From a virus: 64,000 nucleotides of DNA. Under the pieces are notes generated by a model that worked only from the letters and a program-made list of their open reading frames with translations, did no database searches and had not been told where the DNA came from. The translations under genes and the position numbers were made by a program. Every line of letters starts with the position of its first letter. Positions within the stretch are counted from its first letter, which is position 1. The DNA lies in the IMG/VR virus record IMGVR_UViG_3300018080_000116, positions 74,193-138,192 of that record. One strand, written 5' to 3'. Below, in pieces: positions 4,443-28,772 of this stretch.

Positions 4443-4444
4443 GA

Positions 4445-8339: not shown

Positions 8340-8377
8340 CCGAACCCCAGGCAGGCGAGCCGTGTATAAGGGGGCGA
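8340..8377 (+). promoter_or_regulatory. conserved early promoter, copy 9
   Basis: CCGAAC-N17-TGTATAAG-GGGGCGA. Confidence 0.8.
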
Positions 8378-8390
8378 AAGGAACAATGCC

Positions 8391-8864: not shown

Positions 8865-8878
8865 GAGATCAATCCCAG

Positions 8879-8906
8879 CGATATATCCCACCGATGTATC
8901 CTGGGG
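8879..8906. promoter_or_regulatory. tandem palindromic operator-like site B (inverted copy of site A)
   Basis: reverse complement CCCCAGGATACATCGGTGGGATATATCG vs CCCCAGGATACATCCGTAGGATATATCC at 316. Confidence 0.5.
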
Positions 8907-8947
8907 AAGTATCCTGCGTTCTGTCCCTTAAACCTACGGAGATCATC

Positions 8948-9289: not shown

Positions 9290-9338
9290 AATCGTCTGTG
9301 CGGCCCGCTGAGGTACTTTCACCCCCGGAGGCAACACC

Positions 9339-9539
9339 ATGCTCACCATCGACGAGAACGACGCCAGGAACGACGTGGAAGGCCAGGACGCCGAGATCAA
9401 CGACCCCTGCGGCATGTGCGGTGGCCAGCTTGAGCCCCTCGGCCAACTGGCCTGCCTGCTGCACCTACGTTGCCGCAACTGCGGCATGATGTTCAACCGG
9501 CCCGTGGCCGGATGCGGCGACGGTGGCCGCATGTTCTAG
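9339..9539 (+). CDS. small Zn-ribbon protein
   Basis: CGMCGG...CRNCG; GGAGG RBS. Confidence 0.65.
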   Translation: MLTIDENDARNDVEGQDAEINDPCGMCGGQLEPLGQLACLLHLRCRNCGMMFNRPVAGCGDGGRMF

Positions 9540-9547
9540 TGATCCCC

Positions 9548-9584
9548 AGACCCACCGGGCAGCCGCCCGGTGGGTCTCTCTTTT
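9548..9584 (+). terminator. intrinsic terminator
   Basis: AGACCCACCGGGC / GCCCGGTGGGTCT stem plus CTCTTTT. Confidence 0.7.
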
Positions 9585-9730
9585 GGAGCGTACCATGTTA
9601 GGTCTCAACGGCGAGGTCATCAGAGCCATGCAGCGACTCGGCATCGAGCCCCCGTCGCTACCGATGCGACCCTCGCCTCCCCTCGTCCCGGCTGATCGCC
9701 AGGACGACAGCACCACCAACGGAGAAAACG

Positions 9731-10543
9731 ATGAAGGCGTTAATTGAAGTCGATCTTGCCGGTTGCGAAGGCATCCACCGGCAGCAGGCGCTCGACGTGC
9801 TCGCCGCCGTAGTGGACGGCAGCACCATGAGCGAGGCCCTTAGCACCGGCCTGTTCAACAGCAGCCTGTTCGAGTTGAGCAGGTTGGCCAAGCCTCAGTA
9901 TGAGGGCGGCAACTGCCCGGACTGCGGCGAGCCGATCCCCGACGATGCGACGTTCGGCGACGGCTGCGAGAACTGCGAACACGTCTTCGTATGGGGGCAC
10001 GATGAAGGCGACGAGCCCGAGGCCCCCGGCGTCAACTCATTGCGAGTGGTCGGCCTGGATGAAGGCATGAGGGTCGCCGTCCCGCACCTGACGGTCTACG
10101 TCGATCCCGAGCGAGTCGGCACCCCGTTCATGGTGGACGAGGATGGCCCGGACGACGAGCACGGCAGGCGATGCCCTGGCAGCAGTGGCAACCGCTACGC
10201 CTCGGCAGAGGCAGCAGGCCAGTACGTGGCCCGCTGGTTGAGCGATCCCCATGACGACCGTGGGTTACACCCTCTCGGCACTCGGAGTGGCACCCACGTG
10301 TCGGTGGTGGATGGTGGCACCGAGGTACGCCCCTGCATCGTGGACGTGGACAACAACACCGTCACCTTCCTCGACCCCAGCGACACGCATGGGCTCAAGG
10401 CGGCAAGGCCCGACAGTGAGTACCTGCTGATCCACAACGACCCCTTCTACTCCAACTGCCACCAACACCCTGTTGCCCACGTCAGCAGGAAGCCCGAGGA
10501 CTGGCCCACTGCCGAGACCGAGGACACGTACTACTACGAGTAG
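9731..10543 (+). CDS. acidic multi-domain protein with Zn ribbon; last gene of the early block
   Basis: CPDC...CENC; GGAGA RBS. Confidence 0.7.
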   Translation: MKALIEVDLAGCEGIHRQQALDVLAAVVDGSTMSEALSTGLFNSSLFELSRLAKPQYEGGNCPDCGEPIPDDATFGDGCENCEHVFVWGHDEGDEPEAPGVNSLRVVGLDEGMRVAVPHLTVYVDPERVGTPFMVDEDGPDDEHGRRCPGSSGNRYASAEAAGQYVARWLSDPHDDRGLHPLGTRSGTHVSVVDGGTEVRPCIVDVDNNTVTFLDPSDTHGLKAARPDSEYLLIHNDPFYSNCHQHPVAHVSRKPEDWPTAETEDTYYYE

Positions 10544-15177: not shown

Positions 15178-15496
15178 CTCGTTGTCTCCTTGCCATTTGG
15201 GCCAGCAACTTGCCTATGATCGGAAGTTCTTCTTCCAGCTTATCGAGCTTCTTGTCATTCTCGGCCTGCCGTTCATCCATCTTCTCTTTCCATTGTTGGT
15301 CAATGAAGTGGGTGGCCTTGGCCAAGCAGGCTTGATATTCCTTCTGCGTGATGATCCCCTTGGACATCAAAGCAATGACAAGAGCATAGTGGTTGATTAG
15401 GTGGATCTGATTCGTGCCGATGAGCACTTCATTGTAATTCGGACCCTGGATCAGTTGACGAAGTGTGTCCTTCGTTTCGTCACTCATAGCTCCCAT
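15155..15496 (-). CDS. hypothetical coiled-coil protein
   Basis: contiguous - strand operon. Confidence 0.6.
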   Translation of the reverse strand: MGAMSDETKDTLRQLIQGPNYNEVLIGTNQIHLINHYALVIALMSKGIITQKEYQACLAKATHFIDQQWKEKMDERQAENDKKLDKLEEELPIIGKLLAQMARRQRDADGEGA

Positions 15497-15996
15497 GTGT
15501 CTAATACCTCATTATCTTTTTCAGCCGCTTTTTCAAAAAGCTTCTTCATCCGTTCTTTGGCCGGTTCCCAACCCTTGCGCTTATGGAATGTCTCAACTAA
15601 GGTGGAAAACACATGCATGTTGGGGTGAAAGCGACCTTCCCAAAAGCGAGAGGGGTTTTCTTCGTTCAAGCAGTTTTCGATAGCCGCTGCCGTCGCCGCC
15701 GATCTTGAGATCCCCGCTTGACAATGAACCATTATAGTGCCAATGTCATCTCTTTCCCAGAACGATTCTACGAAGTCCCAGATCTTGTGTGCATCATCTT
15801 CTGAAAAAAGACTGCCATGAGCAGGAGACATGGGAGCATCAATATCGCCAAAAGAGCACTGTAGCAGGCCAAGACGCTTAACGCCACTAATTTTTGGATG
15901 TTCATCGAAACTGTCTATGCTAATACAGACCCAGGGTTCGTCACACTCGAATTCCTTCGCTTTGCTCTTAGAGAGTACCACCAAGTTCTTTTTCAT
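15484..15996 (-). CDS. Cys-based protein tyrosine/dual-specificity phosphatase
   Basis: VHCQAGISRSAA (HCX5R). Confidence 0.9.
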   Translation of the reverse strand: MKKNLVVLSKSKAKEFECDEPWVCISIDSFDEHPKISGVKRLGLLQCSFGDIDAPMSPAHGSLFSEDDAHKIWDFVESFWERDDIGTIMVHCQAGISRSAATAAAIENCLNEENPSRFWEGRFHPNMHVFSTLVETFHKRKGWEPAKERMKKLFEKAAEKDNEVLDTWEL

Positions 15997-16922: not shown

Positions 16923-17152
16923 CAGATGTATTCCTCGATGATCTTGAGAACAGCCTTGATGTCGTCACCAGCCAGATCCAGTGTGGTTTCGCCTATCAAG
17001 AACTGAGCTTCGTCGGGGAAATATTCTTCCCCGTCATCGGTTTGCAGGGGGCCGTAGTTGTCTCGGAACACCTTGTCAGCATGTTGAAGCTTCTCTTGGA
17101 TTATCCTGACAATAACAGGCGGCATGAATTTAGGCACGACGACCCCTTTCAT
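16922..17152 (-). CDS. hypothetical protein
   Basis: coupled to neighbours. Confidence 0.55.
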   Translation of the reverse strand: MKGVVVPKFMPPVIVRIIQEKLQHADKVFRDNYGPLQTDDGEEYFPDEAQFLIGETTLDLAGDDIKAVLKIIEEYI

Positions 17153-17984
17153 TCACGTTCACGGGTGGCATCAATTCCAGGCGGAACGTCTTCGTGTTGA
17201 GATACATGGGCACTTCTGGATGTGCGCCTTTCCAGCGATTCTTCAATACGCAGCATCGAAACACATGGGTATTCCAAGAAACGGGAGTGTGGTCATAACG
17301 CATTTGGAGAACAACCGAAGGCATGTAGGCCAGCGGGCGATAATCCACAGCCGCCACCCCGAACTCATCATTCAATTTTTGTGTTGTAATCGAAAGAACA
17401 ATGGCACAATCGTGATCGTATGCCATGCCAACCAGTTGATGCAGCGTGTCCATCCTGCGTTTGGCTCGATAGTTGTAGGGCGTCTCCCCAGTTTGATACC
17501 AATTTCGGAAAGGAAGGGTTCCGAAGCTCTCGTCGAAAAGGATGTCGTGATTGCCCAACGCCCGATGCCAATTAGACTCGACATCTTGAGGCATGTATGA
17601 GGCGGGCAGCAGAGAGTAATCACCAAAATAATCAGTGGGGTAATACCACAAGTGCCCCTCAAAAGGGAGCGTGTTGGCACCCCTGTGAGCCAACAGGTGG
17701 GCCGTGCCCTGTTCAGGCACAAATCCCGCAGAACTTTTCTTGGCGGCATTGAGTGCCATGGTTCGCATGAGAGCCGATTTGCCAGAACCGGCTTTGCCCA
17801 TGACAACTGAGACGGTTCCTCGGCGAAGACCGCCTCCTAACGCCTCGTCGAGCATTGGAAATCCGGTTGTAATAAGCTGTTCATCCAGCTTGACGATCTT
17901 CTTTTTCTTTTCCGCCACCAGAAGCGTCGGTGCCGCCACAAACGTCCCGATCACTCCCAACATCTGCCGTCTGTTTAGATTCAT
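17130..17984 (-). CDS. Tat-leader protein 1: DnaB/RecA-fold ATPase
   Basis: MNLNRRQMLG leader; TGFPMLDEALGGGLRRG, Walker A GKAGSGKS, VLKNR. Confidence 0.75.
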   Translation of the reverse strand: MNLNRRQMLGVIGTFVAAPTLLVAEKKKKIVKLDEQLITTGFPMLDEALGGGLRRGTVSVVMGKAGSGKSALMRTMALNAAKKSSAGFVPEQGTAHLLAHRGANTLPFEGHLWYYPTDYFGDYSLLPASYMPQDVESNWHRALGNHDILFDESFGTLPFRNWYQTGETPYNYRAKRRMDTLHQLVGMAYDHDCAIVLSITTQKLNDEFGVAAVDYRPLAYMPSVVLQMRYDHTPVSWNTHVFRCCVLKNRWKGAHPEVPMYLNTKTFRLELMPPVNVNERGRRA

Positions 17985-18589
17985 TGCAAGTTCTCCCAGT
18001 GTGCTTCCATGCGAAAGCTGCCCTTCTCGCACATGAAGTCCATGCGGTCAATGTAGGATCGAGGATGACCGCTCGCCCAATACCAATACGACGGGTAATC
18101 AACATGCGCCCACACATCGGCATCGGGAGAGCCATGAAGCGGACTGCCCTCCCATATGGCAAAGCCCCTCTGGCCCGACAGCCACAGGGTAGCATCTGGA
18201 TTTTCTCGCAGATGATAGAAATTCCCCTTCCCCTCTTTCCACGCAGGCTTAAAGGCCATCATGTGGGAGATTGTGAAAGGGTGGGCCATGACCCACTTCA
18301 CCGGGCCTTTTTCTTTCCAAATGATCTCGCACAAATGCCAGTAAAACCCTTCAATGCGTTCGTTCACCAACAGATGTTCGGACTTGACATTGCCGTAGTG
18401 TAAATGCTTGGGCGCATCATGCAGCATGTCGAACGTCCGCACATCATGCTGGGGAATATGTCCCGGTTCGGGTTCCAGGATCTTTACTTCGTGTCTTCCT
18501 GGCTTGAGGGGAAGAAAAGCAGAAGCAGGCAAGACCACTGCGGCTCCCGCCGCAGTGGTCATTTTCAAAAAGTCCCTTCGATTATGCAT
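17981..18589 (-). CDS. Tat-leader protein 2
   Basis: MHNRRDFLKMTTAAGAAVVLPASA. Confidence 0.75.
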   Translation of the reverse strand: MHNRRDFLKMTTAAGAAVVLPASAFLPLKPGRHEVKILEPEPGHIPQHDVRTFDMLHDAPKHLHYGNVKSEHLLVNERIEGFYWHLCEIIWKEKGPVKWVMAHPFTISHMMAFKPAWKEGKGNFYHLRENPDATLWLSGQRGFAIWEGSPLHGSPDADVWAHVDYPSYWYWASGHPRSYIDRMDFMCEKGSFRMEAHWENLQ

Positions 18590-19091
18590 GGGGTCTCCTT
18601 TTTTGCTGTGCGGTCATAATGCAGACGTTGTTTTCCATGGCGACCCTTCTCCACATTTCCATTTCGGAGGGGAGTTCTCTCAAGTCAGAGAAAGACAGGG
18701 ACTTCACGACATCTCGCTTGGTCATGGGTTGACCAGCGATCAAAAGTCTGGCTTCGGGCCATGTGGCTTTTGCCACAGCAACCTTTGATACCAGATTGCG
18801 GGGCCCGTAGATGAACCAGACCTTCATGGGGTAGCTCATGTTCTCGTCGGCTTCGATGGAATCTTCTACCGCTCTCATAAAATCCCATTCCCGTTCTCGG
18901 TCTCTGAAGATCATTGGAACCCGAACGAGATCGGTTCCATCACCTTTGGCATCGATTTGACAATCATTGCTTTGTGTGGAAACGTAGTAGATTTCGCTCG
19001 CCTGTTTCACTGGCGTGGCGAAAGAGAGGGGCAAGACCACTGCGGCTCCCGCCGCAGTGGTCGTTTTCAAAAAGTTTCTTCGGTTAATCAT
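18582..19091 (-). CDS. Tat-leader protein 3 (C-terminus resembles a DnaB helicase fragment)
   Basis: MINRRNFLKTTTAAGAAVVLP; WRRVAMENNVCIMTAQQ. Confidence 0.7.
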   Translation of the reverse strand: MINRRNFLKTTTAAGAAVVLPLSFATPVKQASEIYYVSTQSNDCQIDAKGDGTDLVRVPMIFRDREREWDFMRAVEDSIEADENMSYPMKVWFIYGPRNLVSKVAVAKATWPEARLLIAGQPMTKRDVVKSLSFSDLRELPSEMEMWRRVAMENNVCIMTAQQKRRPHA

Positions 19092-19260
19092 TGTTTCCTC
19101 CAAACGAATCCGGTTCGTTCACATCGAATGCCCGCCCGAGTCCACACGATTCTATCGCAGTTCTCAAAGGATCGCACGGTGTTTCTTTTAGATGGTGCGT
19201 CCTTGTGAGCCACATGAGGGTCGTATGCCCTCTGAACAGGCGGCGCTTGTCGTGGAGCAT

Positions 19261-19473
19261 TCATTTTCGAGGGTCCGGTAGAAGGTACATGGGCCACAAG
19301 ATCGCCAGCCCGGCACATATCGCTGCTTTGCCCCAGTTGATACCGATGCCGGGCTCCCACCAGCGTCCGAATTTATGATCGGGCTGGGCAAACATCAAGA
19401 TAAAGCTCGTGGTCCATCCAATCAAGTAGACTGTGAAGAGGGTAGAGATGATCCATCCGATGATTGCAATCAT
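19261..19473 (-). CDS. small membrane protein
   Basis: two hydrophobic segments. Confidence 0.6.
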   Translation of the reverse strand: MIAIIGWIISTLFTVYLIGWTTSFILMFAQPDHKFGRWWEPGIGINWGKAAICAGLAILWPMYLLPDPRK

Positions 19474-19527
19474 GTTAATCTCAGTTTTGCAAAAAGGCTA
19501 CCCCGATTTTGTAGGTCTTTTTGTCCA

Positions 19528-19896
19528 TCAGTCTTTTACCTCTCTATACAGGCTTTGTTTCAGCCGCTTCCACTGCCCGCCGATATTATTTGCGTGTATG
19601 GAATGAAGCCCCTGAAAAAGGTTGACGGTGCTATCAGTGCGAACGAACACGCACACTTGGGTTCCCCCTTCTTCTGTCCTCCACAAGTACCATTCCCCCA
19701 GATCGGTCGGACACCGAGACCAGTTTTCTCGATCTCGTTTTTCCTCAGCTTGGATCTGGATGTCCATCAAGAGGGATTCAGCGGCTTGCAGGGTGGCAAA
19801 GCTGCCATCTGAATGGCGTATCTCTAGCGGATTCTCACACTCAACTGTCCACCCTTCGGACATCAATAGTTCGATCATATTGTCATCCATTGTCAT
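19528..19896 (-). CDS. hypothetical protein
   Basis: GGAGG RBS before MTMDDN. Confidence 0.6.
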   Translation of the reverse strand: MTMDDNMIELLMSEGWTVECENPLEIRHSDGSFATLQAAESLLMDIQIQAEEKRDRENWSRCPTDLGEWYLWRTEEGGTQVCVFVRTDSTVNLFQGLHSIHANNIGGQWKRLKQSLYREVKD

Positions 19897-20027
19897 CCTC
19901 CGTAATGAAGTTGCTTTCCCACCCTTCATGGTACGTTCCGTTGGCATCGTAGCCCTTGACGTACCAGTCGGCGGCGTACATTCCGTAGTGCTCTTTGGTC
20001 CGGGATACAACCCGGACGAGGACAACT

Positions 20028-20231
20028 TTAGTCGTTTGGCCCATGGCTTGCCACACCCCTTGTTTGGCGTTCCTGGATGACTTCCACCATCCGAATCCAA
20101 TCCCATTGTAGGTTCGGGCTGCATCGGATCTCGGTGAACTTAATCATGGCTTCCTGATCGGAATCGGCCTCAAACCGTGTGTAGAGTTTTTCTGGGATGT
20201 CATGTCGGGCGTGATAGACTTCGTATTTCAT
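20028..20231 (-). CDS. hypothetical protein
   Basis: operon position. Confidence 0.55.
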   Translation of the reverse strand: MKYEVYHARHDIPEKLYTRFEADSDQEAMIKFTEIRCSPNLQWDWIRMVEVIQERQTRGVASHGPND

Positions 20232-20542
20232 GTTTTCTTGTGTCTTGTAATGTCGAGTAGGTACAGGAATAGAACAATAACGCCAAGGATCAAAGCCACT
20301 ATGATGGCGGCTGCGAACAAAGTCCCAAGAAGGAGGGCAAAACCACCAATGATAGTCCCATCATTAAACTCCCACGCCAACTCCGGTGTCCCCCACAACC
20401 AGTTGAAGGCGGTTGTGGTGGGGCCGACTATTTGTCTCCAGCAGGAGAGCAGCAGCATGATTGGCTTGCCGAAGATGGCCAAGACAACGCATGTCATTGT
20501 CACATAAACCAACAGTCGTCCGGTGGTGTATTGCTTCAACAT
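20228..20542 (-). CDS. membrane protein
   Basis: two long hydrophobic stretches. Confidence 0.6.
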   Translation of the reverse strand: MLKQYTTGRLLVYVTMTCVVLAIFGKPIMLLLSCWRQIVGPTTTAFNWLWGTPELAWEFNDGTIIGGFALLLGTLFAAAIIVALILGVIVLFLYLLDITRHKKT

Positions 20543-20781
20543 GACACAAATAAGGGTCCATTCGGTCCCACATATGCCCCAAGTGTGTTGAATTGAAAGT
20601 ATTCAATGGCGTCTTCTTCGGTTGCGCCATCTTTCATGAGGATGTCAATGCATTTGATGCTGCTGTAGACGGCTCGACAGGGTTCACATGCGTTATGCGT
20701 AAACCCTATGATGGCATCATCGAACCCATCGGCGAACAGGGCATCCTCATTTCTTTCTGCGATCTGTTCTTTTAGATTCAT
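20536..20781 (-). CDS. conserved-type phage hypothetical protein
   Basis: ADGFDDAIIG...AIEYFQFNTLGAYVG pattern common in phage small proteins. Confidence 0.65.
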   Translation of the reverse strand: MNLKEQIAERNEDALFADGFDDAIIGFTHNACEPCRAVYSSIKCIDILMKDGATEEDAIEYFQFNTLGAYVGPNGPLFVSC

Positions 20782-20824
20782 TCTTTTAATTTTGTTTTCT
20801 TTTCCCTAGTGCTTCCGATGGACA

Positions 20825-20858
20825 AACGCCCCGTGCCACCGGCACGGGGCGTTCTTTT
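20825..20858. terminator. intrinsic terminator hairpin
   Basis: AACGCCCCGTGCC-acc-GGCACGGGGCGTT. Confidence 0.7.
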
Positions 20859-20881
20859 GATTGTGATTTAATCTGGCTTAT

Positions 20882-21115
20882 TTACCAAGCCAGTACGACG
20901 CCATCCCCTCGTCGGATAATCTCAAAGCCCATTGTCTTGAGAGCGGGCCAGATTTTTCCTTCTGCCATGCCTTTTGGGGGCAATGGGAGGGAGATGTTTC
21001 GCAGCGGAGAGATGAATCGGTTCCTTCCCGCTCGCTCAATTTCACGAGCCCTTAGGGTAATCTCGGAGACATACCGGCTGGCTTCCATTCCTTTTTCCTT
21101 GTTTGCCCCTGTCAC
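20882..21115 (-). CDS. hypothetical protein
   Basis: operon position. Confidence 0.5.
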   Translation of the reverse strand: MTGANKEKGMEASRYVSEITLRAREIERAGRNRFISPLRNISLPLPPKGMAEGKIWPALKTMGFEIIRRGDGVVLAW

Positions 21116-21118
21116 GCC

Positions 21119-21580
21119 CTACTTCTTCACGACGTACTTGGTTCCTTCCACGACGATCCATTCCATGGTCCTGAGATCGACTTGACGCATTTGGGGACCG
21201 GTTTCGACCAGTTCTTCCACCTGGGCGTAGCCCGTGTCGTTGGTGGCGAGGAATCGGCAGATCATGTTACGGTCGGAGCCGTCTTTCTTGACGAATTGGA
21301 TCTGGATGGGTTTGTTGGGGCTATCCTTGAGGATGCCGATGATCTTGGTTCGGCTGAGGGTGACTTCTTCTTCAACGAAGTTGCCTGAGAACCCTTTTTG
21401 GATCAGTGGTTCGCCTTGGACGGTGAACATCTGGTCTTGTTCGATGTTCTTGACGACGAGGCACAGGTCTCCGTCTTTGTTTTTTACTTCCTCCACGATG
21501 GTGTAGAAGTGAAAGGCGACGACATCGCCTTTTTTGACTTTGGTGGGATCGAGTTCATTGATTACTTTGTCTTCGTTCAT
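21119..21580 (-). CDS. WYL-like/SH3-fold protein
   Basis: IQFVKKDGSDRNM...RQVDLRT pattern. Confidence 0.55.
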   Translation of the reverse strand: MNEDKVINELDPTKVKKGDVVAFHFYTIVEEVKNKDGDLCLVVKNIEQDQMFTVQGEPLIQKGFSGNFVEEEVTLSRTKIIGILKDSPNKPIQIQFVKKDGSDRNMICRFLATNDTGYAQVEELVETGPQMRQVDLRTMEWIVVEGTKYVVKK

Positions 21581-21599
21581 TGGTTTTCCTTTCTCCTTG

Positions 21600-22154
21600 T
21601 TAATCGGTAAGAGCGTTCAATTCTTCCGGCCATTTTGATTTTCCGCTTATCGCAATATCGGCCAGATCACCCAGGAGATCCCATTGGACGTTGAAGGTGT
21701 CACCTTCTCGGAGGTACGTGTCCAGTTCTCGGAAAGATCTCAACACCAGAGACTCTCCATCTGGAAAGGGGCTTTTTTTATAGAACAGTTGGAGGGACAG
21801 GCGGGACACGTGAAAGAGAGAGTCACGGGCAACGAAGTGGCCCGTGACTCTGAAGGTTGCGTCTTCGTAGACGACTTTAGTGTCATCCAGGATGTAGCAA
21901 GCAGTTGCGGGCTTGCCGAGGTGGATCATTTGTCTTGAGCCGACCGAGCGTCTGCCCGTGATGTCCATGAAAGCCGTGAAGCTTTCGGCCAGTCGTTGTT
22001 TGGCGTCATCGAGTGATGAGTGGGAGACGACGAGTCGATCTTTGGGCGGCTCGTCGATACCGAAGTTATCGTCAGTGAGCAGCGAAAAGGGGATGAATGC
22101 TGCGGATGCCCCAGCGGCGGCTGTTTTCAGGAAGTTCCTGCGGGTGTGCGACAT
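21600..22154 (-). CDS. Tat-leader protein 4 (possible baseplate/fibre-domain paralog)
   Basis: MSHTRRNFLKTAAAGASAAFIP; C-terminal GDTFNVQWDL. Confidence 0.7.
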   Translation of the reverse strand: MSHTRRNFLKTAAAGASAAFIPFSLLTDDNFGIDEPPKDRLVVSHSSLDDAKQRLAESFTAFMDITGRRSVGSRQMIHLGKPATACYILDDTKVVYEDATFRVTGHFVARDSLFHVSRLSLQLFYKKSPFPDGESLVLRSFRELDTYLREGDTFNVQWDLLGDLADIAISGKSKWPEELNALTD

Positions 22155-22287
22155 TATTAACTCCGTCTAATAATGGAATCGGAGAAACGAAGAGCGACTG
22201 CGGCATCCTGCCGCAGTCGCTCTCTCCCCATGCGAGGCTTTACAATCCTTATGCCTCCCCTGCCACAACGTCCCATGTTGTGGACTT

Positions 22288-22692
22288 CTACTGGCTAGAT
22301 CCTTCTGCCTCGTTTTCACCTTGGGGGTTGAGCAACTCTTCCTTGCTTCTCCATGCTTTGCGAAGTTCGATCTTACTCATCCCGGCCCATTTGTCAATAC
22401 AGGTTTGGTGTTGCTCGTCGGTGAGTCGCCCTTCTTCTTTTGCGGTGTTGGCCCAAGCAGTCAGGCTTGTTTTGTATTGTTCCTTGGCCATTTCGTTGAA
22501 AACGATTTGCGTTGTTGTTTCCTGAAAGCCGGTGGGTGGGTGTGCGATGAATTCTTCACCGTCTGCGGCTTGGCCCATTTCGTCGATCTGGGCGAGATCA
22601 TCATGGGGAGCTTCATCGGGCGCAATCTCGGGCTGGGGTTCTTGGCAGCCAACGAAGAGGACAAAGGCTAGGAGGGGCAGCAGGCGTTTCAT
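22288..22692 (-). CDS. lipoprotein
   Basis: MKRLLPLLAFVLFVGC lipobox. Confidence 0.7.
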   Translation of the reverse strand: MKRLLPLLAFVLFVGCQEPQPEIAPDEAPHDDLAQIDEMGQAADGEEFIAHPPTGFQETTTQIVFNEMAKEQYKTSLTAWANTAKEEGRLTDEQHQTCIDKWAGMSKIELRKAWRSKEELLNPQGENEAEGSSQ

Positions 22693-22785
22693 TGGTTTTC
22701 CTTAGACATCCGTGGGCTTGGAGGGTATTGATTACGTGGTCGGCGGCAGTATCAGTGTCCATGCCTGATACATCAATTTTGAGTC

Positions 22786-23190
22786 CTATGTCAATGGCGT
22801 TTCGGAGGGCGGCGATGATTTCGGCTCGGGCGGTTTCATACTGCATGATCTTTCACCATAATACATGTAAACATTTTCATAATACCAATCAATGGTGAAC
22901 GCCAGGAAGACACAATGTTCCGGGCAGTTCTCTTTTATAGCTTCGGGCAGCGAGATGTATTTGCTGCGAAGAACGTCTTTGGTTTTGGTCTTTCCAAACC
23001 ATCCCTCAACCTCTTCTTGACACACAACGAAATCCTTCCACACGAGGATTTCGCCAGTCCCCTCGCCTGTGGCCACCTTTTTTTTGACGACGTAGACACG
23101 TTCGAGGCTAGTGATGTCGAACGAGACGAGGGCGGCGGCATTTTGGGCGGCTGTTGCTGCGGCGGGTTGTGGCACGGGTTTACCTAACAT
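22786..23190 (-). CDS. hypothetical protein
   Basis: start reassigned to MLGKPVP. Confidence 0.55.
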   Translation of the reverse strand: MLGKPVPQPAAATAAQNAAALVSFDITSLERVYVVKKKVATGEGTGEILVWKDFVVCQEEVEGWFGKTKTKDVLRSKYISLPEAIKENCPEHCVFLAFTIDWYYENVYMYYGERSCSMKPPEPKSSPPSETPLT

Positions 23191-23468
23191 GTTTCTTGTT
23201 TGACTCGCTCCAGGTTGGCGAGCAGGTTGTATTTGATGACCCAATGCAGGTGCGGATTATAGATGATGTCGTGTCTAATTTGCAAGTAGTCTTTTTCGTC
23301 TTGGCAAGCCATAATCCTCTTGCAGAATTCGCCATCGAGTGCCTTGATACCGAGTGGTGTTTTACAGCAGAAAAAGAAGCTGCTGTTGAGAGGTGCTTGA
23401 TCGACGTAGACGGCATCCATGCCGCCGCAGTCTTCAAGCGTGAAGGGCAGGTCCATCTGGATCAACAT
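23184..23468 (-). CDS. hypothetical protein
   Basis: start reassigned to MLIQMDLP. Confidence 0.5.
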   Translation of the reverse strand: MLIQMDLPFTLEDCGGMDAVYVDQAPLNSSFFFCCKTPLGIKALDGEFCKRIMACQDEKDYLQIRHDIIYNPHLHWVIKYNLLANLERVKQETC

Positions 23469-24031
23469 CCGTCTTGCACCTTTGAGATTGCGTGGACTCC
23501 AAGCAGTTTTACATTCTTTGACACGACAGTGACATATCGCTCTTCTTGGCAGGGGGTGACATCGAAAAGTTCTCTCTCGGTGTCGGCTTGAACGGCGGTG
23601 CGGAAGACAATATCTTTGGGCATGCCTCTTTTGGGCAACACCAATTCCCTGAGTCGTCGGCCTTCGGGGGTGTCGAGGCATTGGATGTCGCAAATAACCC
23701 AATCCTCGTGGGTGTCGCAATCATGAAGAAACTCGAATTTTGTAGCAACGTGAGAGATTTCGCTGAGACGGATCTTACAATCTTTGGGCATGCCGATTTG
23801 GCCCCACACGCCTTCTTTGGGAATTCGGTCAACCATTTCCTCGATGGCTTTCCGGGGGTAAATGTTCATGTTCTTGGTGGGGCGGTCAAGAACAAGCGTC
23901 CGGACGTGTACGAGTTTGTCGGGAGGTTTCGCCACGGCTTCAACGACCGGTGGCGTGTCCTCGAAAGAGATGGGGATCGCTGCGGCGGATGCGGCTGCCG
24001 CTGCCGTTTTCAAAAAACTCCTTCTATCCAT
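23462..24031 (-). CDS. Tat-leader protein 5: degenerate T4 gp21-type prohead protease homolog
   Basis: [20 protein letters not shown]; NMNIYP, GQIGMP, ISHV, LDTPEG follow the gp21 motif order. Confidence 0.7.
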
Positions 24032-24230
24032 CGTCTTCCCGGCCTCCTTGATCTGCCCGCTGGATTGCTTCCCAGACTTCCCTGCGGTGAACGCACTTCC
24101 ACTCCTTGGGAGCGTTGATGCCGAGTCGGACTTTATCGCCTCGGATTTCAACGACCACGATGTCAATTACGTTGTCGGGATCGGGGCCAACAACAATGCT
24201 TTCATTTTTCTTTCTGGACAACACGAGCAT
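24024..24230 (-). CDS. csrA: carbon storage regulator CsrA/RsmA
   Basis: [15 protein letters not shown]...[16 protein letters not shown]...VHRREV. Confidence 0.95.
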
Positions 24231-24243
24231 GGGAATCTCCTTT

Positions 24244-24879
24244 TTAACAGAGTTCGTTAATGAGAGCGTCCTTCAGTTCTCCATCGAGCTTCAGGGGTTC
24301 GCCAAGGGGTTGGAAACCACACACATGAACGGCGTAGAATTCGTCAAGGGCAGCTTCGTCAAAACCACGGAAGCAATCAATCATTTCGCCGAAATACAAG
24401 TCCATCGTAAGCAGTTCCCAACCGCTCTTCGTGAACTGACTTCCAATAGATACTGGATGAACGTCGGCGAGACATTCTTGTCTGTTGTTGGCGAAGTCCC
24501 AGAGCGTTACGATCCTGGAATCAACAACATAGTCCAGCTTTCCACCTTCTCGCTTAAACGGCGTGGGCTTCGACCAATCCCATAGATCTTGTGACAGAAC
24601 TTTGGCGTCCTTGAGAGTGAAAGTCAGCCGCAATGATCCGACGAGGCCCCGTGCATCCCCATTGAAGCGCCGGTAAGTCCAAAAGAAATTGGGAATCCAA
24701 TTGATGCCTTCGATGTGAAGTCCCAGTTGGTCGTCACGACCATAAACGTCGCCGTACTTGGTAATGGGTTTGGGTTTCGGCTTTGGAAGAACGGGTTCGT
24801 AAGAAATCAGCGGAGCCACAATCGGCAATGACAGAGCGGCGGCAGTGTTCCTCAAAAAGTCACGTCTTGTGGCGATCAT
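24244..24879 (-). CDS. Tat-leader protein 6 (possible gp19-type tail tube paralog)
   Basis: [19 protein letters not shown]; WIP..W, LWDW, TLWD..NN.QE.L.DV.P.SI pattern. Confidence 0.7.
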
Positions 24880-24999
24880 CTTTCTTTCTCCTCTCATGGA
24901 ACTTGGAAACATCGAAATCAATTTTGACTCGATGGTTCTTGCGCAAAACAATCACTCCCGACCTGCGGTCGGAAGTGATTTTGATGACTTTCTTGTTTT

Positions 25000-25182
25000 T
25001 CATTGCCCCACGGCCTTAATCAGATCGGGCAGGCTTGAAGAGAAACCCGCAAGCAGGAAACCAACAAACAGGAACCAACCCCATCCTTCCTTTTCTTTCA
25101 CGGCCAAGAAGGCGGCAACGATGAAGCAGGTGATGGACGGTAGTAGGGACAGGAATAAAACTAATAGGGCCACGATGTTCTC
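25000..25182 (-). CDS. small two-TM membrane protein
   Basis: hydrophobic C-terminal part of ORF 25000..25491; exact start uncertain. Confidence 0.45.
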   Translation of the reverse strand, partial: ENIVALLVLFLSLLPSITCFIVAAFLAVKEKEGWGWFLFVGFLLAGFSSSLPDLIKAVGQ

Positions 25183-25183
25183 C

Positions 25184-25735
25184 TTAACAGATGGCGGTCG
25201 GTGCGGCACAACGGGGGTGAAGGTATATTCCTTCGACCTTTTGTAGAGTGGATTCGGGAATGACCCCAACATTGATCCACAGTTGGTTTTTGAGCGTGCG
25301 AACCAAAACCAACTTAACCGCTCCATAGCAAACCCAATGTTCGTCGTCGATTCGTCTCTCGTAACAAACAGCATCGCTTTTCCGGAGGAACGCTTTGATG
25401 TTTTTCTCGTAGAATTCAATGTCGGTTGGCTCGCCCGTGGCGAAGTCGGTCCCACGGACACCTTCCCAGGGGGTTTCGTCAAAAAGCACATCCCCGTTGA
25501 TGAGGTATGGCCCCATCATTTCGATCACAGGCAGGAGTCCAGCGGGAGTCATCTCCACCCTAATGACACTGCCGGGTTTGGAAGGTTCGCCCCTTTTCAA
25601 CTCCTCATACTCCATATCCCACTTCCAATCGGGGTATCTCAATCGGTCGGTATCGGTATAGGCTTCGGCGGCGACGGGTATGGCAGCACCAGCAAGTGCG
25701 ATTGGGGCGGCTTTGAGAAAAGTGCGTCGTTCCAT
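25184..25735 (-). CDS. Tat-leader protein 7
   Basis: MERRTFLKAAPIALAGAAIPVAAEA with an AEA cleavage motif. Confidence 0.75.
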   Translation of the reverse strand: MERRTFLKAAPIALAGAAIPVAAEAYTDTDRLRYPDWKWDMEYEELKRGEPSKPGSVIRVEMTPAGLLPVIEMMGPYLINGDVLFDETPWEGVRGTDFATGEPTDIEFYEKNIKAFLRKSDAVCYERRIDDEHWVCYGAVKLVLVRTLKNQLWINVGVIPESTLQKVEGIYLHPRCAAPTAIC

Positions 25736-25746
25736 GGATTCCTCCA

Positions 25747-26331
25747 TCAATGTTCATGAAAACACATATCACAAGCGTCCTGCCAACAATAATGACCGCA
25801 AGCCTCGCAGTCATTTGGGCACTCAAACATGCCCACAGCGATTGGAAGTGAGTTAATCGCCGCAACTGGAATCCCCATTGTAGGTTGTGGGAAATCCGTG
25901 TCAAGAGATTCTCGCAGAATCATGTTGGGCAGTTCAGCCAACTTCAAGAGGGGTTTAAGAAGATCCCTCCGTCGAGTGGTTGACCGGAATAGCGTATCAG
26001 GTGTATTCCTGACAATCTCTATGACTTTTTCAACATACTCTTCGGAGTAGTAATCCCCTCCGGAGTGCCAACGAAAGAAATCTGGCTGGAATCTTTTCAA
26101 TTCGGCTAGTACCTTCTCTACGAAGTCTTTCCGCTTGGATGCACGGTAGCGTGCAAGGGTTGCCTTGCGCACCGAGTCCATTTTGAAATTATTCCGGCGA
26201 GCGTAGCAGGCTGGCTTGCCATTACGGCCCTTGAGGCACCAACTCGTCGGCTTGCAGGTTAGATGTGGTGGGAGATTGAAGATGTAGACTTTCGCCCCCA
26301 TCTTGCTGTTGCCCTTGATGAGCAGATTCAT
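25747..26331 (-). CDS. phage 'gene 88'-family Cys-rich protein
   Basis: GNSKMG...FNLP..TC...C...CYA, FRWHSGGD, CPNDCEACG.CW. Confidence 0.75.
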   Translation of the reverse strand: MNLLIKGNSKMGAKVYIFNLPPHLTCKPTSWCLKGRNGKPACYARRNNFKMDSVRKATLARYRASKRKDFVEKVLAELKRFQPDFFRWHSGGDYYSEEYVEKVIEIVRNTPDTLFRSTTRRRDLLKPLLKLAELPNMILRESLDTDFPQPTMGIPVAAINSLPIAVGMFECPNDCEACGHYCWQDACDMCFHEH

Positions 26332-26578
26332 CGTACTTCTCCAATTCGTATTCCACTACGTCAGACCAAGTAAGCTCGCCGAGATCGTTAGCGTATCTGA
26401 TGCGGTATTTGTAGCCTTTGGCCCAGCCATTGTAGCTGAAACTATTGACAATGGTAGCCGTTTTGTCCAGTGCGGGAACATAAACTATTTCCCCGCAGAC
26501 AAACTTGTTGTTGGGCTCGTTATCGGCTGGAGCGCAACCGAAAATCAACAAAATCAAGATGAACAGCGACTTTTTCAA
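26222..26578 (-). CDS. lipoprotein
   Basis: TTG start after AAGGAG; KKSLFILILLIFGC lipobox. Confidence 0.6.
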   Translation of the reverse strand: MKKSLFILILLIFGCAPADNEPNNKFVCGEIVYVPALDKTATIVNSFSYNGWAKGYKYRIRYANDLGELTWSDVVEYELEKYDESAHQGQQQDGGESLHLQSPTTSNLQADELVPQGP

Positions 26579-26591
26579 TCCGGGGCTCCTT

Positions 26592-27317
26592 TCAGACGGA
26601 TTCATAGCGGGTGCAACAGTGTGGCCGAAAATCATAGACTGCGAAGGGCTCGAACTTGTGTGGATCGGATCGAGGGGGAAACTCAATTTCTCTAGTCAAG
26701 AACATACGACCCCAGCCCCACTTACAACGACAGCTTGATCCGCTGGGCCACGTGATCTCTTTGCCCTCCGGGTGAAAACAAACAACCCTGTTTTCGTAAG
26801 GCAGGATTACCTCACGCATGTTGGTTTGCGAAACGAACTTCCCATGGTCTTTGTATTCACTCCAGCGACTATGGACATACCCTTCGATGGCCGAGTCAAG
26901 CCAGTCGAAAAGATACTTGTCATCCCCACCATCTTTATGCAGTTTGCGGAAGTAGGAGCGGATTCTTCCCCAGTGAGAGGGAACCACGGGCAGGCCATAG
27001 GCTTCGTGTAATTTACACCACTCACACTCGGGCACCAACTCTGCATAGTCCTTGCCCGGCATGCGATGCAATCGAAGGTTTTCTTCCGTGCAGGCATCCA
27101 CCCAGAATGTTCCCCGGCAGAGTTTGCAGCGGTACTTAGCATCCGGGCCGTCACCGAACATGAACTCAAAGTGTCTCCATCCGGACACCGATCCGGACAC
27201 TTTGTCCGGTTTCTTGTCCGGATTGGCCTTAATAATCGGTGTATTAAGTCCTAGCGGAACGACACAAGTAGCGGCGGCTGTCGCCGCCGATACTTTAAGG
27301 AAGTCACGTCTACGCAT
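26592..27317 (-). CDS. Tat-leader protein 8 (CxxC pairs)
   Basis: MRRRDFLKVSAATAAATCVVP; CKLC, CEWC. Confidence 0.75.
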   Translation of the reverse strand: MRRRDFLKVSAATAAATCVVPLGLNTPIIKANPDKKPDKVSGSVSGWRHFEFMFGDGPDAKYRCKLCRGTFWVDACTEENLRLHRMPGKDYAELVPECEWCKLHEAYGLPVVPSHWGRIRSYFRKLHKDGGDDKYLFDWLDSAIEGYVHSRWSEYKDHGKFVSQTNMREVILPYENRVVCFHPEGKEITWPSGSSCRCKWGWGRMFLTREIEFPPRSDPHKFEPFAVYDFRPHCCTRYESV

Positions 27318-27326
27318 TGTAAGCTC

Positions 27327-27557
27327 CTATGCTGCTGCGGCCTGCACCGCCATGATGAACCGTTGGTCTTCTTCAAGCATCATTTCTTTAACGGCTCGTT
27401 CCCTCATCAAATCAAGTAGGTCTTGGTGGGCTTGACCAAGACGGCGGACCTTGGGTTGGGGTGGAACTGGATCTTTGGGCTGCGGCGTGCAACCCAAGGG
27501 AACAACCGCCGCCGCCATGCTGGCGGCGACGGTTTTTAAAAAACTTCGACGGTTCAT
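27327..27557 (-). CDS. Tat-leader protein 9, possible Tat lipoprotein
   Basis: MNRRSFLKTVAASMAAAVVPLGC. Confidence 0.7.
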   Translation of the reverse strand: MNRRSFLKTVAASMAAAVVPLGCTPQPKDPVPPQPKVRRLGQAHQDLLDLMRERAVKEMMLEEDQRFIMAVQAAAA

Positions 27558-27611
27558 GGGGCCACCTGGGGTTAGTTCCGCTCGGCATTATCTAAAATGA
27601 GCAATCCAAAG

Positions 27612-28370
27612 TCAAGTATGGATCTTCGGAATGGGTCGAGGCAAAAATTGCGAAAGCCGCTTATAGCAAAAAGAGTTGCACGGCTTACGATCCAAGATTC
27701 TGTAGGGCGAAATAACGGAACCTTCATACAGGTGGAAGAAGCTCCATGCGCTTACTTCGACCAATTCACTTCTTCCTTTGACGTGGCAGTGGAACCACGG
27801 CCTTCCGCCCGCATCCCAATTGACGGGATAGTAGTCTTTTCCCCAATCTTTTTCATCCAACATCTCGACTGCTTGAAGGATTTCTTGAAATTCTGGCAAG
27901 GCTTGTTCATAAGAGGCCACAGGTGCGGGCCGAAAAGAGCATGGAATCTTTTCCACTAGCCAAGCGGAGCCGCACGGGTGGTAATATCCGGCACGATGCT
28001 TGTAGGAAGATGTCATCCACTTATCTCCCTGGATGATTGGGGAGACCAAATCCCGCAACCATTCGTCGTTGAATATCACGCAGTCGGGTTCAATGATAAC
28101 CAAAACATACACATCATTGAATTTGCACCACAGGGCAGCCTCGTCTAGTCCCGCACCATGATCCTGGTTGCCTTCTTTGTATCTTTCGCCCTCACTACAG
28201 ACAGTGACTTGCTTGGATTCTGCGAAGTCGATTTCCTCCTGGGTAAGGTCGTGATTGACCATCAGCAGGTTCAGATCGGGATGCACCTCACGAAAAGAGC
28301 CGAGGGAGATCCGCATCCAATCGAGATTGTGTTCTGTATGGTATCCGACTAAAGCAACAGTGATATTCAT
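27612..28370 (-). CDS. GT-A fold glycosyltransferase-like protein
   Basis: HGAGLD, IIEPDCVI (DxD-like), DAGG motifs. Confidence 0.6.
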   Translation of the reverse strand: MNITVALVGYHTEHNLDWMRISLGSFREVHPDLNLLMVNHDLTQEEIDFAESKQVTVCSEGERYKEGNQDHGAGLDEAALWCKFNDVYVLVIIEPDCVIFNDEWLRDLVSPIIQGDKWMTSSYKHRAGYYHPCGSAWLVEKIPCSFRPAPVASYEQALPEFQEILQAVEMLDEKDWGKDYYPVNWDAGGRPWFHCHVKGRSELVEVSAWSFFHLYEGSVISPYRILDRKPCNSFCYKRLSQFLPRPIPKIHT

Positions 28371-28393
28371 GTCCTAAGAGAGTCAGGCGCACG

Positions 28394-28431
28394 AAAAAGG
28401 CCCGCCCAGGTAGGGGATACCTGGGCGGGCC
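28394..28431 (-). terminator. intrinsic terminator
   Basis: 15-bp stem AGGCCCGCCCAGGTA/TACCTGGGCGGGCCT with an A-run on the + strand. Confidence 0.75.
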
Positions 28432-28457
28432 TCCAACGAAAGGAGAAAAGAAACGAG

Positions 28458-28772
28458 CTAGTCCCACCACATGCGGATGAGAAGTCCGTCCCTATGCCAA
28501 TAGGAATCATACTCTTGTGGGCGCATATTTGCAACCGCAGATGCCAACCACGACAAATGGTTCCAAAGCTCGTTTTTGGAAAGGTTGTCGGTAATGAGGA
28601 TGACAGCCGTCCCATCATCATTTTTCCAGGACGGCACATCCTCCACATCCACAAACTCATACGCAATATCCTCGAACCATTCGAGGAAGGAGGCCCGGCC
28701 AGCAAAGCGATTAACAGCGGATTCGCTTAGTTGGCATTCGGACTCAAAAAGCACGCTTGTTTCTTCAGGCAT
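28458..28772 (-). CDS. hypothetical protein
   Basis: operon position. Confidence 0.6.
   Translation of the reverse strand: MPEETSVLFESECQLSESAVNRFAGRASFLEWFEDIAYEFVDVEDVPSWKNDDGTAVILITDNLSKNELWNHLSWLASAVANMRPQEYDSYWHRDGLLIRMWWD

Follow-up and report, generated by a model that had tools for sequence, protein, structure and literature searches.

Introduction

Phage T4 encodes two superinfection-exclusion proteins, Imm and Sp, which are made during infection and act at the membrane or in the periplasm. Other described proteins close to the locus reported here are the T4 prohead protease gp21 (Peptidase_S77, 5JBL), the stand-alone phage ATPases of the KaiC/RecA/DnaB_C type (~250-290 aa) and the proteins that carry bacterial Tat signal peptides, which are described by the curated models PF10518 (Pfam TAT_signal) and TIGR01409. 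The catalytic residues of the prohead protease are H85 and S140 (PMC12991175).

Here we analysed a window of 64 kb, the terminal part of a 138-kb fragment from a huge, T4-related uncultured phage (CheckV completeness 27%). The closest relative of this fragment is the uncultured phage LR756511 (595 kb). On the minus strand of the window, between positions 17130 and 27557, nine genes (T1 to T9, Table 1) each open with a canonical twin-arginine leader (RRxFLK). A first-pass annotation had proposed that the cargoes behind such leaders are degenerate copies of the phage's own core proteins. Based on the leaders and on the properties of T5 and T1, we predict that the block at 17.1-27.6 kb serves the phage as an accessory module directed at the envelope, an explanation that we consider probable when all of its parts are taken jointly.

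Results

All of the reading frames listed by the first-pass annotation are present on the minus strand where it had placed them, and each has an ATG start. An SD-like sequence lies 5-12 nt upstream of each ATG from T1 to T9. T8 falls beyond the range covered by that annotation, yet it is a member of the cluster. A motif scan of the whole 138 kb confined the nine leaders to window positions 17130-27557, and only about three RR leaders were found in the 595 kb of LR756511. The T1-T9 genes form an accessory block, and the structural genes are encoded on the other strand. T2 shares 4 nt with T1 and 8 nt with T3, and a CsrA gene overlaps the start of T5 by 8 nt. The same block also contains two lipobox-type ORFs and two membrane ORFs.

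Table 1. Positions in the window of the leader-bearing genes, the leader repeat and the CsrA gene
Feature	Position	Strand	Description	Main evidence
T1	17130..17984	-	RR leader (RRQMLG) and RecA/DnaB/KaiC-fold P-loop ATPase, 284 aa	Walker A region matches; fold match
T2	17981..18589	-	Tat leader and orphan cargo, 202 aa	TAT_signal 27.4 bits; TIGR01409 26.3 bits
T3	18582..19091	-	Tat leader and orphan cargo, 169 aa	TAT_signal 31.9 bits
T4	21600..22154	-	Tat leader and orphan cargo, 184 aa	TIGR01409 20.8 bits
T5	23462..24031	-	Tat leader, ~20-residue linker and gp21/Peptidase_S77-fold pseudoprotease, 189 aa	His85 to Met81, Ser140 to Arg144
CsrA homolog (context gene)	24024..24230	-	Between T6 and T5	Pfam CsrA E 7.4e-20
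T6	24244..24879	-	RR leader (RRDFLR) and orphan cargo, 211 aa	Leader motif
T7	25184..25735	-	Tat leader and orphan cargo with 17-residue SpoVR-type motif, 183 aa	TIGR01409 16.9 bits
T8	26592..27317	-	Tat leader and Cys-rich cargo with two CxxC pairs, 241 aa	TAT_signal 24.1 bits
T9	27327..27557	-	Tat leader ending in lipobox-like LGC, 76 aa	TAT_signal 23.3 bits; TIGR01409 21.3 bits
Leader DNA repeat, copy 1	18528..18589	.	T2 leader	Longest direct repeat in 17000-28500
Leader DNA repeat, copy 2	19030-19091		T3 leader	90% identical to copy 1 over 62 nt
Leader DNA repeat, copy 3 (weak)	22090-22151		T4 leader	63%

The motif RRxFL(K/R) occurs in eight of the nine genes, T1 carrying the variant RRQMLG. 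The TAT_signal model scored above its cut-off for T2, T3, T5, T8 and T9, and TIGR01409 at or above its own for these five genes as well as T4 and T7. Curated Tat cut-offs were thus reached by seven of the nine genes, while T6 (12.9 bits) and T1 stayed under them. The consensus S/T-R-R-x-F-L-K sits within the first ~10 residues, and the leaders are true N-termini: the in-frame sequence upstream of the T2, T4, T8 and T9 starts is closed by stop codons, and no tag precedes the leaders. The h-regions include Gly, Pro, Ser and Thr and have low hydrophobicity, traits that they share with Tat signals and that set them apart from typical stable anchors. By eye, AxA-like cleavage sites are plausible in T2 (ASA), T3 (SFA) and T7 (AEA), and the T9 leader has a lipobox-like LGC; inspection of T4, T5, T6 and T8 gave no clear AxA or lipobox site. 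The mature parts of six of the nine cargoes have an even number of cysteines, at least two.

The leaders could be supposed to resemble Tat signals only superficially and to serve as a phage-specific address, for example in capsid loading, like the capsid-targeting sequence of T4. The kinship of T5 with a prohead core component would suit such a role. However, curated bacterial Tat models recognise the leaders, which differ from the short amphipathic T4 tag; they occupy the extreme N-terminus; and their genes lie in an accessory block that runs against the structural genes. We therefore regard a capsid address as highly improbable.

The grafting of cargoes onto an export tag, as the first-pass annotation had put it, has direct support in the DNA. 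The T2 and T3 leaders are 90% identical over 62 nt (80% across 66 nt when counted from the RR codons), while their cargoes are unrelated. The leader therefore behaves as a movable cassette ahead of unrelated cargo domains.

T5 had been taken for a gp21-type prohead protease, and its gp21/herpesvirus-assemblin fold was confirmed. A profile of its family (146 members) matched T4 gp21 (5JBL) with an E-value of 1.9e-13, and 85 of the 146 members matched Pfam Peptidase_S77 (PF03420). The T5 sequence alone gave no match to that Pfam model; it did match phrog_207 among the PHROGs (E 2.5e-4). In pairwise comparison, T5 reached a shuffle z of 12 against the true protease of LR756511 and of only 1.9 against T4 gp21 itself, though the homology is real.

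Both catalytic residues, His85 and Ser140, are absent from T5, the aligned positions being Met81 and Arg144. Across the family, the first position holds Met in 88 of 146 members and His in two; the second holds Arg in 123 of 146, including all 51 leader-bearing members. In LR756511, an intact protease is encoded next to the gp23 and gp20 homologs, and a leader-tagged dead paralog lies ~280 kb away. T5 likewise lies outside a head module, with the CsrA gene and small accessory ORFs as neighbors and no adjoining scaffold, portal or major capsid genes. For T5, then, the idea of a degenerate copy of a core protein holds: it is a diverged, catalytically dead paralog. Since it is strongly conserved apart from both replaced catalytic residues, T5 is on this evidence not a gene in decay but a neo-functionalised pseudoprotease.

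The T5 leader is kept in the homologs P0002-P0004; among T5 homologs the leader is 59-64% identical, as high a value as for the domain. Two thirds of the family are leaderless, and the job of the T5 domain therefore cannot depend on the periplasm. Only five of the 146 family members have leaders that reach E <= 0.01 with the Tat HMMs, and many leaders read RRxFLxE. Cysteines are more numerous in leader-bearing members (2.55) than in leaderless ones (1.60; p 4e-4).

The description of T1 as a DnaB/RecA-type ATPase was borne out by profile matches and by the fold of its ESM Atlas model. The matches all cover the Walker A region and include phrog_19 (E 4.5e-11), KaiC/RadA (E 1e-6 to 1e-9), Pfam KaiC/DnaB_C/Rad51, NCBIfam RadA (E 7e-9) and PDB KaiC (E 1e-6); beyond this region, T1 has diverged so far that no profile aligns. 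In the Atlas model (pTM 0.70), residues ~4-280 align to RecA, DnaB_C, RadB and KaiC clusters with a TM of 0.64-0.70 by query, a comparison with predicted models on both sides. The nearest clusters are viral KaiC/RecA-N proteins. A specifically DnaB-like identity was considered and rejected: T1 is at least as close to RecA as to DnaB (a T1 profile run on LR756511 placed RecA, E 1.7e-6, ahead of DnaB, E 3.3e-4), and within its 284 aa there is no N-terminal DnaB domain.

In an alignment of four T1 sequences, the Walker A motif, a hydrophobic strand plus DE (apparently Walker B, assigned by eye since no profile aligns that region) and a KNRW motif are invariant. With Walker A and the apparent Walker B kept, T1 looks like a working ATPase. 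Its membership in the RecA superfamily agrees with the core-protein idea, but no degeneration is visible in T1, whose nucleotide-binding motifs are kept in the homologs. In P0158-P0160, the leader is 75-83% identical vs 37-43% for the rest of the protein, far above usual signal peptides. A working ATPase would make no sense in the ATP-free periplasm. Given the intact ATPase motifs and the unusually conserved leader, a membrane anchor or some other role fits T1 better than simple export.

This raises the possibility that the leaders in general are uncleaved inner-membrane anchors or peptides that dock on the Tat receptor, holding their proteins cytoplasm-facing at the membrane. T1 would then be a membrane-tethered ATPase with T2 and T3 as partners, and T5, as a protease-like factor, would nucleate or regulate prohead assembly at the membrane. 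In favor of this proposal, the inner membrane is where T4 proheads are assembled, the motifs of T1 are intact and its leader is twice as conserved as its body. Gp40-type or other membrane-proximal assembly has also been discussed for jumbo phages (PMC7824862). The T3/T2/T1 overlaps suggest coupled translation and perhaps a complex, and conservation of the T5 leader equals that of its domain. On the other hand, by the positive-inside rule the arginines would be cytoplasmic and the domain outside, not inside. The h-regions are Tat-like in their weak hydrophobicity and composition, and the exact bacterial consensus in eight of nine leaders is hard to explain unless it is read by TatC. Overall, anchoring or docking as the general function of the leaders appears unlikely to us, and we continue to favor an envelope-directed module.

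Judged from their sequences, the seven cargoes other than T1 and T5 are lineage-specific orphans. For T2, T3, T4, T6 and T7, searches of Pfam, PHROGs, NCBIfam, PDB sequences and 50,697 phage genomes gave nothing, and T8 had no relatives in the phage collection. T6 found only itself among 5.8 billion proteins, and its Atlas model was poor and gave no usable match. The only real local match of T7 was to a SpoVR-like protein of LR756511 (12 of 17 residues identical, z 9.7); Pfam SpoVR did not match T7.

Several of these cargoes had been likened to virion or replication proteins, and none of the likenesses drew support at the sequence level, where a null result means no support and not refutation. 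T6, described as a gp19-type tail tube, scored z 1.0 against T4 gp19 and 2.2 and -1.3 against the two tube genes of LR756511. A tube profile gave it -2.3 bits, level with the other cargoes, and Pfam, PF06841 run on the genome, BLAST and phmmer found no tube likeness. T7, likened to a sheath C-terminus (PF04984), scored z 0.1 against T4 gp18, with nothing from Pfam, PHROGs or PDB sequences. T2 as a capsid segment scored z -1.4 against T4 gp23 and 0.4 against the LR756511 capsid protein. T3, whose C-terminus had been likened to DnaB, gave z <= 0.5 against DnaB, RecA and T1. For T4, likened to a baseplate/fibre domain (62231-62725), BLASTP gave an E-value of 0.099 on another segment, and z was 2.2. 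Since the sheath and tube likenesses found no support, the analogy with the T4 gene order 18-19-21 falls with them. What stands of the core-protein idea is T5 and T1, two of the seven cargoes named.

We also considered the broader claim that all of the cargoes, or most of them, have diverged from paralogous virion and replication proteins (tube, sheath, capsid, baseplate, protease, helicase) and are exported to act as decoys for defence sensors or to block incoming tails in the periplasm. The decoy or blocker function is speculation. T5 and T1 fit the claim, and pairwise tests have little power on remote homologs, as seen from T5, which reaches only z 1.9 with gp21 and alone misses Peptidase_S77. 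However, a relationship as distant as that of T5 to the LR756511 protease gives z 12, far from the values of T6 against tube genes or T2 against the capsid protein. The tube profile ranked T6 no higher than other cargoes, the pseudoprotease profile found no second member among them, T2, T3, T4, T6 and T7 had no database or phage-genome match, and the local match of T7 is a SpoVR motif, not sheath. To our knowledge, the sensors described for phage structural proteins work in the cytoplasm, and an exported decoy would be missing from that compartment, which argues against decoys. Protease-related decoys are nevertheless conceivable, as a preprint describes triggering of CBASS by prohead protease activity (PMC12991175). 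Taken together, these observations make the claim for most or all cargoes quite improbable.

Discussion

We favor an envelope-directed accessory module that would work through the Tat system of the host. Neither the phage fragment nor LR756511 encodes TatA or TatC. The host Tat translocase would recognise the leader and either transport the cargo, already folded, through the inner membrane or leave it anchored there. The Tat route may be used because folding of the cargo domains takes place in the cytoplasm. The T5 domain would serve as a non-cutting binding module, and the exported set may alter the envelope of the infected cell, for example by excluding superinfecting phages.

Compared with bacterial Tat signal peptides (PF10518, TIGR01409), the leaders have in common the RRxFLK motif, an uncharged Ala/Gly-rich h-region, the N-terminal position and, in seven of nine, HMM scores over cut-off. 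They differ in being phage-encoded, with nine within 10 kb, and in being conserved as much as the cargo or more in the T1 and T5 homologs. Their cargoes are without a cofactor-binding family and include one head-protease fold and one ATPase fold. T5 differs from T4 gp21 in having Met and Arg for His85 and Ser140, in its added N-terminal Tat leader and in being encoded in an accessory block and not in the head module; in LR756511, a copy of the T5 type coexists with the intact protease. T1 shares the Walker A neighborhood and the overall RecA fold with stand-alone phage KaiC/RecA/DnaB_C-like ATPases, to which T1 and its three close homologs add a nearly invariant RR-hydrophobic N-terminal leader. 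The likeness of T1-T9 to Imm and Sp of T4 is a functional analogy to their predicted role; the proteins have no sequence or fold relation, and the targeting route differs.

Results

A prohead protease relative that has lost its catalytic residues

T5, one of nine minus-strand genes (T1 to T9) that begin with twin-arginine (RR) leaders, had been read as a gp21-type prohead protease, and that relationship is borne out by its family profile, an AlphaFold model and Foldseek. The only protease match of T5 searched alone was to phrog_207 ('head maturation protease', E 2.5e-4); Pfam yielded none. A word-index search returned three relatives (57-66% identity), each with a leader, and a related-locus search of IMG/VR, JGI metagenomes and GTDB genomes found no close ones. 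The alignment of these four sequences was too thin, giving an AF2 model with a pLDDT of 35 and no matches in a PDB profile search. The profile of the four was run against 1.84 billion representatives and retrieved 276 proteins at E <= 0.001, of which 146 were aligned and are referred to here as the T5 family; with these 146 sequences both modeling and the PDB search succeeded. Positions 16-140 of the family profile matched the structure of phage T4 gp21 (5JBL; E 1.9e-13), and 85 of the 146 members matched Pfam Peptidase_S77. The T5 model (pLDDT 88) consists of a leader helix, a lower-confidence linker and a domain starting at about residue 40. Its best three Foldseek matches were 5JBL chains (probability 1.0), and a viral structure library yielded 104 matches at E <= 0.001, mostly prohead proteases; matches in this library include ~140-aa proteins of cultured jumbo phages.

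For catalysis gp21 uses His85 and Ser140, and its dead mutant is H85A/S140A (PMC12991175); when aligned with the T5 family, the 5JBL chain has Ala at both positions. The His85 position is Met in T5 and in 88 of 146 family members, with His in only two. At the Ser140 position T5 has Arg, as do 123 of 146 members, among them every one of the 51 with an RR leader. Elsewhere the family is near-invariant (Tyr58, Gly77, Ser93, His94, Thr121 and Gly124). Since these other positions are held while the catalytic residues are replaced across the family, T5 is a conserved pseudoprotease, not a decaying copy. The 51 leader-bearing members have a median length of 172 aa and the leaderless remainder, a few of which are possibly truncated gene calls, a median of 132 aa. 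On a quick tree of the family the leader state changes about 18 times, and well-supported branches force at least four of these changes.

The source record is a single linear sequence of 138,192 bp, of which the window is the final 64 kb. With a CheckV completeness of 27%, it represents a fragment of a phage genome several hundred kb long. Searches of the 138-kb fragment for capsid, protease, sheath, tube, DnaB and RecA genes detected none; Peptidase_S77, gp19, phrog_207 and SpoVR were also without a match, and tblastn found no homologs of phage T4 core genes. The cargoes (the parts after the leaders) were therefore compared with phage T4 and with the complete sequence of an uncultured 595,163-bp phage, LR756511.1, which served as the reference relative. 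Over 99% of its length, the baseplate wedge protein (57394-58974) shares 45.7% identity with its LR756511.1 homolog, and the next best phage reaches ~25%. LR756511 has a T4-like head module, with gp20, gp21 and gp23 homologs together at 521-533 kb; the protease in this module is intact, with GELDHP and SSRG blocks. About 280 kb away is a leader-tagged paralog of 297 aa with Met and Arg at the catalytic sites, so that in LR756511 the tagged copy coexists with an untagged, intact one. The pseudoprotease profile found no further members in LR756511 or in the 138-kb fragment.

Some features of the record were noted in passing. An ORF of 3833 aa (40849-52350, plus strand) lies upstream of the baseplate genes. 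The gp6-like wedge protein shares 46% identity with its LR756511 counterpart. G+C content shifts abruptly within the window, from 59-64% (1-10000) to 47-53% (10001-64000); in the whole record, G+C is 54-63% over ~72 kb (genome 12-84 kb) and close to 50% elsewhere.

An ATPase with apparently intact motifs

T1 had been described as a degenerate copy of a DnaB/RecA ATPase. The ATPase identity stands, and the motifs appear intact. Profile alignments to DnaB, RadA, KaiC, Rad51 and RecA cover only residues ~32-100, around Walker A, and over residues ~4-280 a full-length ESM Atlas model (pTM 0.70) matches clusters of RecA, DnaB_C, RadB and KaiC with TM 0.64-0.70. Three homologs (42-48% identity) keep Walker A, the hydrophobic strand ending in DE and KNRW; their leaders are 75-83% identical, whereas the remainder is only 37-43% identical. 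PADLOC gave generic P-loop matches only. Because the T1 profile scored the RecA of LR756511 above its DnaB, describing T1 as a DnaB copy is too specific. Two T1 homologs lie on contigs of 50,994 and 10,682 bp, sizes exactly equal to those of contigs bearing two T5 homologs (T5/T1 homolog pairs P0002/P0159 and P0004/P0160). These matching sizes suggest that the cluster may be conserved.

Other cargoes

Each cargo was stripped of its leader and aligned to its claimed counterpart by Smith-Waterman, and the score was expressed as z against 300-500 shuffles. The positive controls scored well (T5 against the LR756511 protease, z 12.0; T1 against the LR756511 DnaB, z 11.3, and RecA, z 11.9). The first-pass annotation had proposed virion or replication counterparts for seven cargoes; these held for T1 and T5, and the other five found no support in the sequence comparisons. 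T6, proposed as a tail tube, scored z 1.0 against phage T4 gp19 and z 2.2 and -1.3 against the two gp19-like genes of LR756511, and a three-protein tube profile gave it -2.3 bits, equal to other cargoes. T7 scored z 0.1 against the phage T4 sheath protein gp18, and T2 scored z -1.4 against gp23 and 0.4 against the LR756511 capsid protein. T3, thought to resemble the C-terminus of DnaB, reached z <= 0.5 with DnaB, RecA and T1 alike; a by-eye impression that it holds a degenerate RecA P-loop and Q-strand also failed the shuffle test. The likeness of gene T4 (a member of the cluster, not phage T4) to the baseplate/fibre protein at 62231-62725 gave z 2.2, and the aligned segment was not the one claimed. 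T5 itself scored only z 1.9 against phage T4 gp21 despite their family homology, so pairwise tests of this kind can miss very remote fold-level likeness in the other cargoes.

Database searches were consistent with these scores. Beyond the leader, T2, T3, T4, T6 and T7 had no match in Pfam, PHROGs, NCBIfam, PADLOC or PDB sequences, and T2, T4, T7 and T8 had none in 50,697 phage genomes. No T6 relatives were present among 5.8 billion proteins, nor did the related-locus search find close ones in IMG/VR, JGI metagenomes or GTDB genomes; its Atlas model was unusable. In T7, residues 33-49 match a SpoVR-like LR756511 protein (343532-345187) in its conserved N-terminal motif, with 12 of 17 positions identical (z 9.7); outside this motif there was no alignment, and the Pfam SpoVR model did not match.

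Leaders and neighboring genes

Eight of the nine leaders read RRxFL(K/R) and continue into an Ala/Gly-rich uncharged stretch; T1 reads RRQMLG. An SD-like sequence lies upstream of every ATG. Pfam TAT_signal exceeded its gathering score for five leaders and TIGR01409 reached its cut-off for seven. A six-frame motif scan found RR N-termini of this kind only in these nine genes in 138 kb, and roughly three across all 595 kb of LR756511. Two other small LR756511 ORFs with canonical RRxFL leaders, at 158208 and 410726 (minus strand; 115 and 80 aa), are scattered and unclustered. No similarity was found among the T1-T9 cargoes outside the leader. Within 17000-28500 the longest direct repeat is the leader DNA shared by T2 and T3 (90% identity over 62 nt), of which gene T4 has a weak third copy. 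The repeat shows that the leader segment was copied from one gene to another although their cargoes are unrelated. Head-protease sites were considered at the (L/I)xE motifs shortly before the T1 and T5 starts and rejected, because the upstream frames are unsupported as starts and the motif at T5 overlaps the CsrA gene.

Genes with twin-arginine leaders and their neighbors (window coordinates)
Feature	Position	Strand	Description
T1	17130-17984	-	twin-arginine leader at ORF start, RRQMLG
T2	17981-18589	-	twin-arginine leader at ORF start, RRxFL(K/R)
T3	18582-19091	-	twin-arginine leader at ORF start, RRxFL(K/R)
T4 (gene)	21600-22154	-	twin-arginine leader at ORF start, RRxFL(K/R)
T5	23462-24031	-	twin-arginine leader at ORF start, RRxFL(K/R)
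T6	24244-24879	-	twin-arginine leader at ORF start, RRxFL(K/R)
T7	25184-25735	-	twin-arginine leader at ORF start, RRxFL(K/R)
T8	26592-27317	-	twin-arginine leader at ORF start, RRxFL(K/R)
T9	27327-27557	-	twin-arginine leader at ORF start, RRxFL(K/R)
CsrA homolog	24024-24230	-	Pfam CsrA E 7.4e-20; between T6 and T5, 8-nt overlap with T5 start codon region
DSP-like (dual-specificity-phosphatase-like) phosphatase	15484-15996	-	CX5R motif; PF00782 E 3.7e-6, below cut-off
GP88-family gene	25747-26331	-	PF17338 E 3.2e-24; between T8 and T7
Two lipoprotein-type (lipobox) ORFs and two small membrane ORFs	22288-22692, 26222-26686, 19261-19473, 20228-20542	-	interspersed with Tat genes

Taken as a whole, the 17-28 kb block looks envelope-directed. 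T8, which lies in the cluster beyond the range of the earlier claims, may bind metal: its mature part contains 10 cysteines, with two CxxC pairs among them. Metal binding is a classical reason for Tat export. A DSP-like gene is also found in LR756511 (L001:21391-21849), where it lies ~0.6 kb downstream of the dead, leader-tagged protease; this hints at conserved linkage.

Discussion

The best-supported outcome of this study is a widespread and strongly conserved family of gp21-type prohead proteases, predicted to be catalytically dead, about one-third of which carry an RR leader. As far as our searches reach, this family is new; in a related phage a dead copy occurs alongside a working protease. 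We found no paper on Tat-tagged phage pseudoproteases or on Tat-substrate clusters in huge phages, and a jumbo-phage survey mentions neither (PMC7824862). A 2026 preprint reports that CBASS is switched on by prohead-protease activity (PMC12991175), which makes a protease-mimicking regulator or decoy conceivable. With this activity as a reported immune trigger, regulation, decoy activity and exclusion are concrete candidate roles for the T5 family. A protease-mimicking regulator or decoy would need to act in the cytoplasm, however, which suits the leaderless family members better than T5. Pseudoenzymes are usually regulators or mimics of their active relatives, and T5 would be expected to bind rather than cut.

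To our knowledge, phage proteins rarely bear Tat signals. Nine Tat-type leaders within 10 kb point to a dedicated module that would, through predicted export, give a huge phage access to the host envelope. Neither the 138-kb fragment nor LR756511 encodes TatA or TatC, and any export would therefore use host machinery. The earlier picture of core-protein copies grafted to an export tag is partly supported, by two of the seven cargo likenesses and by the leader repeat. We predict that the module is most likely an accessory set of exported or membrane-anchored proteins using the host Tat pathway, built by placing a shared leader cassette before diverse cargoes, at least two of them most likely recruited from classical cytoplasmic phage folds. 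Tat might have been chosen because such domains fold in the cytoplasm, and the module could function at the envelope or in superinfection. Cysteine counts are even and at least two in six of the nine mature parts, and leader-bearing members of the T5 family have more cysteines than leaderless ones (p 4e-4), a pattern that lends weak support to an oxidising destination.

The main unexplained point is an ATPase with apparently intact motifs behind an export-type leader. A Tat-type leader on a seemingly functional ATPase is a paradox, and both the intact T1 motifs and the unusually conserved leaders count against simple export. For these reasons we retain, as an unlikely alternative, a reading of the leaders as membrane anchors or Tat-docking elements. 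Returning to the accessory module, a broader proposal, which we consider more doubtful still, is that huge phages copy parts of their own cytoplasmic machinery, give the copies new functions and direct them to the host Tat pathway, a dead prohead protease still binding protease substrates and a RecA-type ATPase being examples. These copies might work at the inner membrane or outside it, where they could block superinfecting phages, or might bind protease-sensing immune proteins and carry them from the cytoplasm by Tat 'hitch-hiking'.

Compared with known systems, the leaders conform to the sequence definition of bacterial Tat signals. T5 resembles and descends from the Peptidase_S77 family, but it has neither the catalytic dyad nor a position in the head module. 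It therefore lacks features that define a Peptidase_S77 enzyme, and T5-like genes should not be labelled head maturation proteases.
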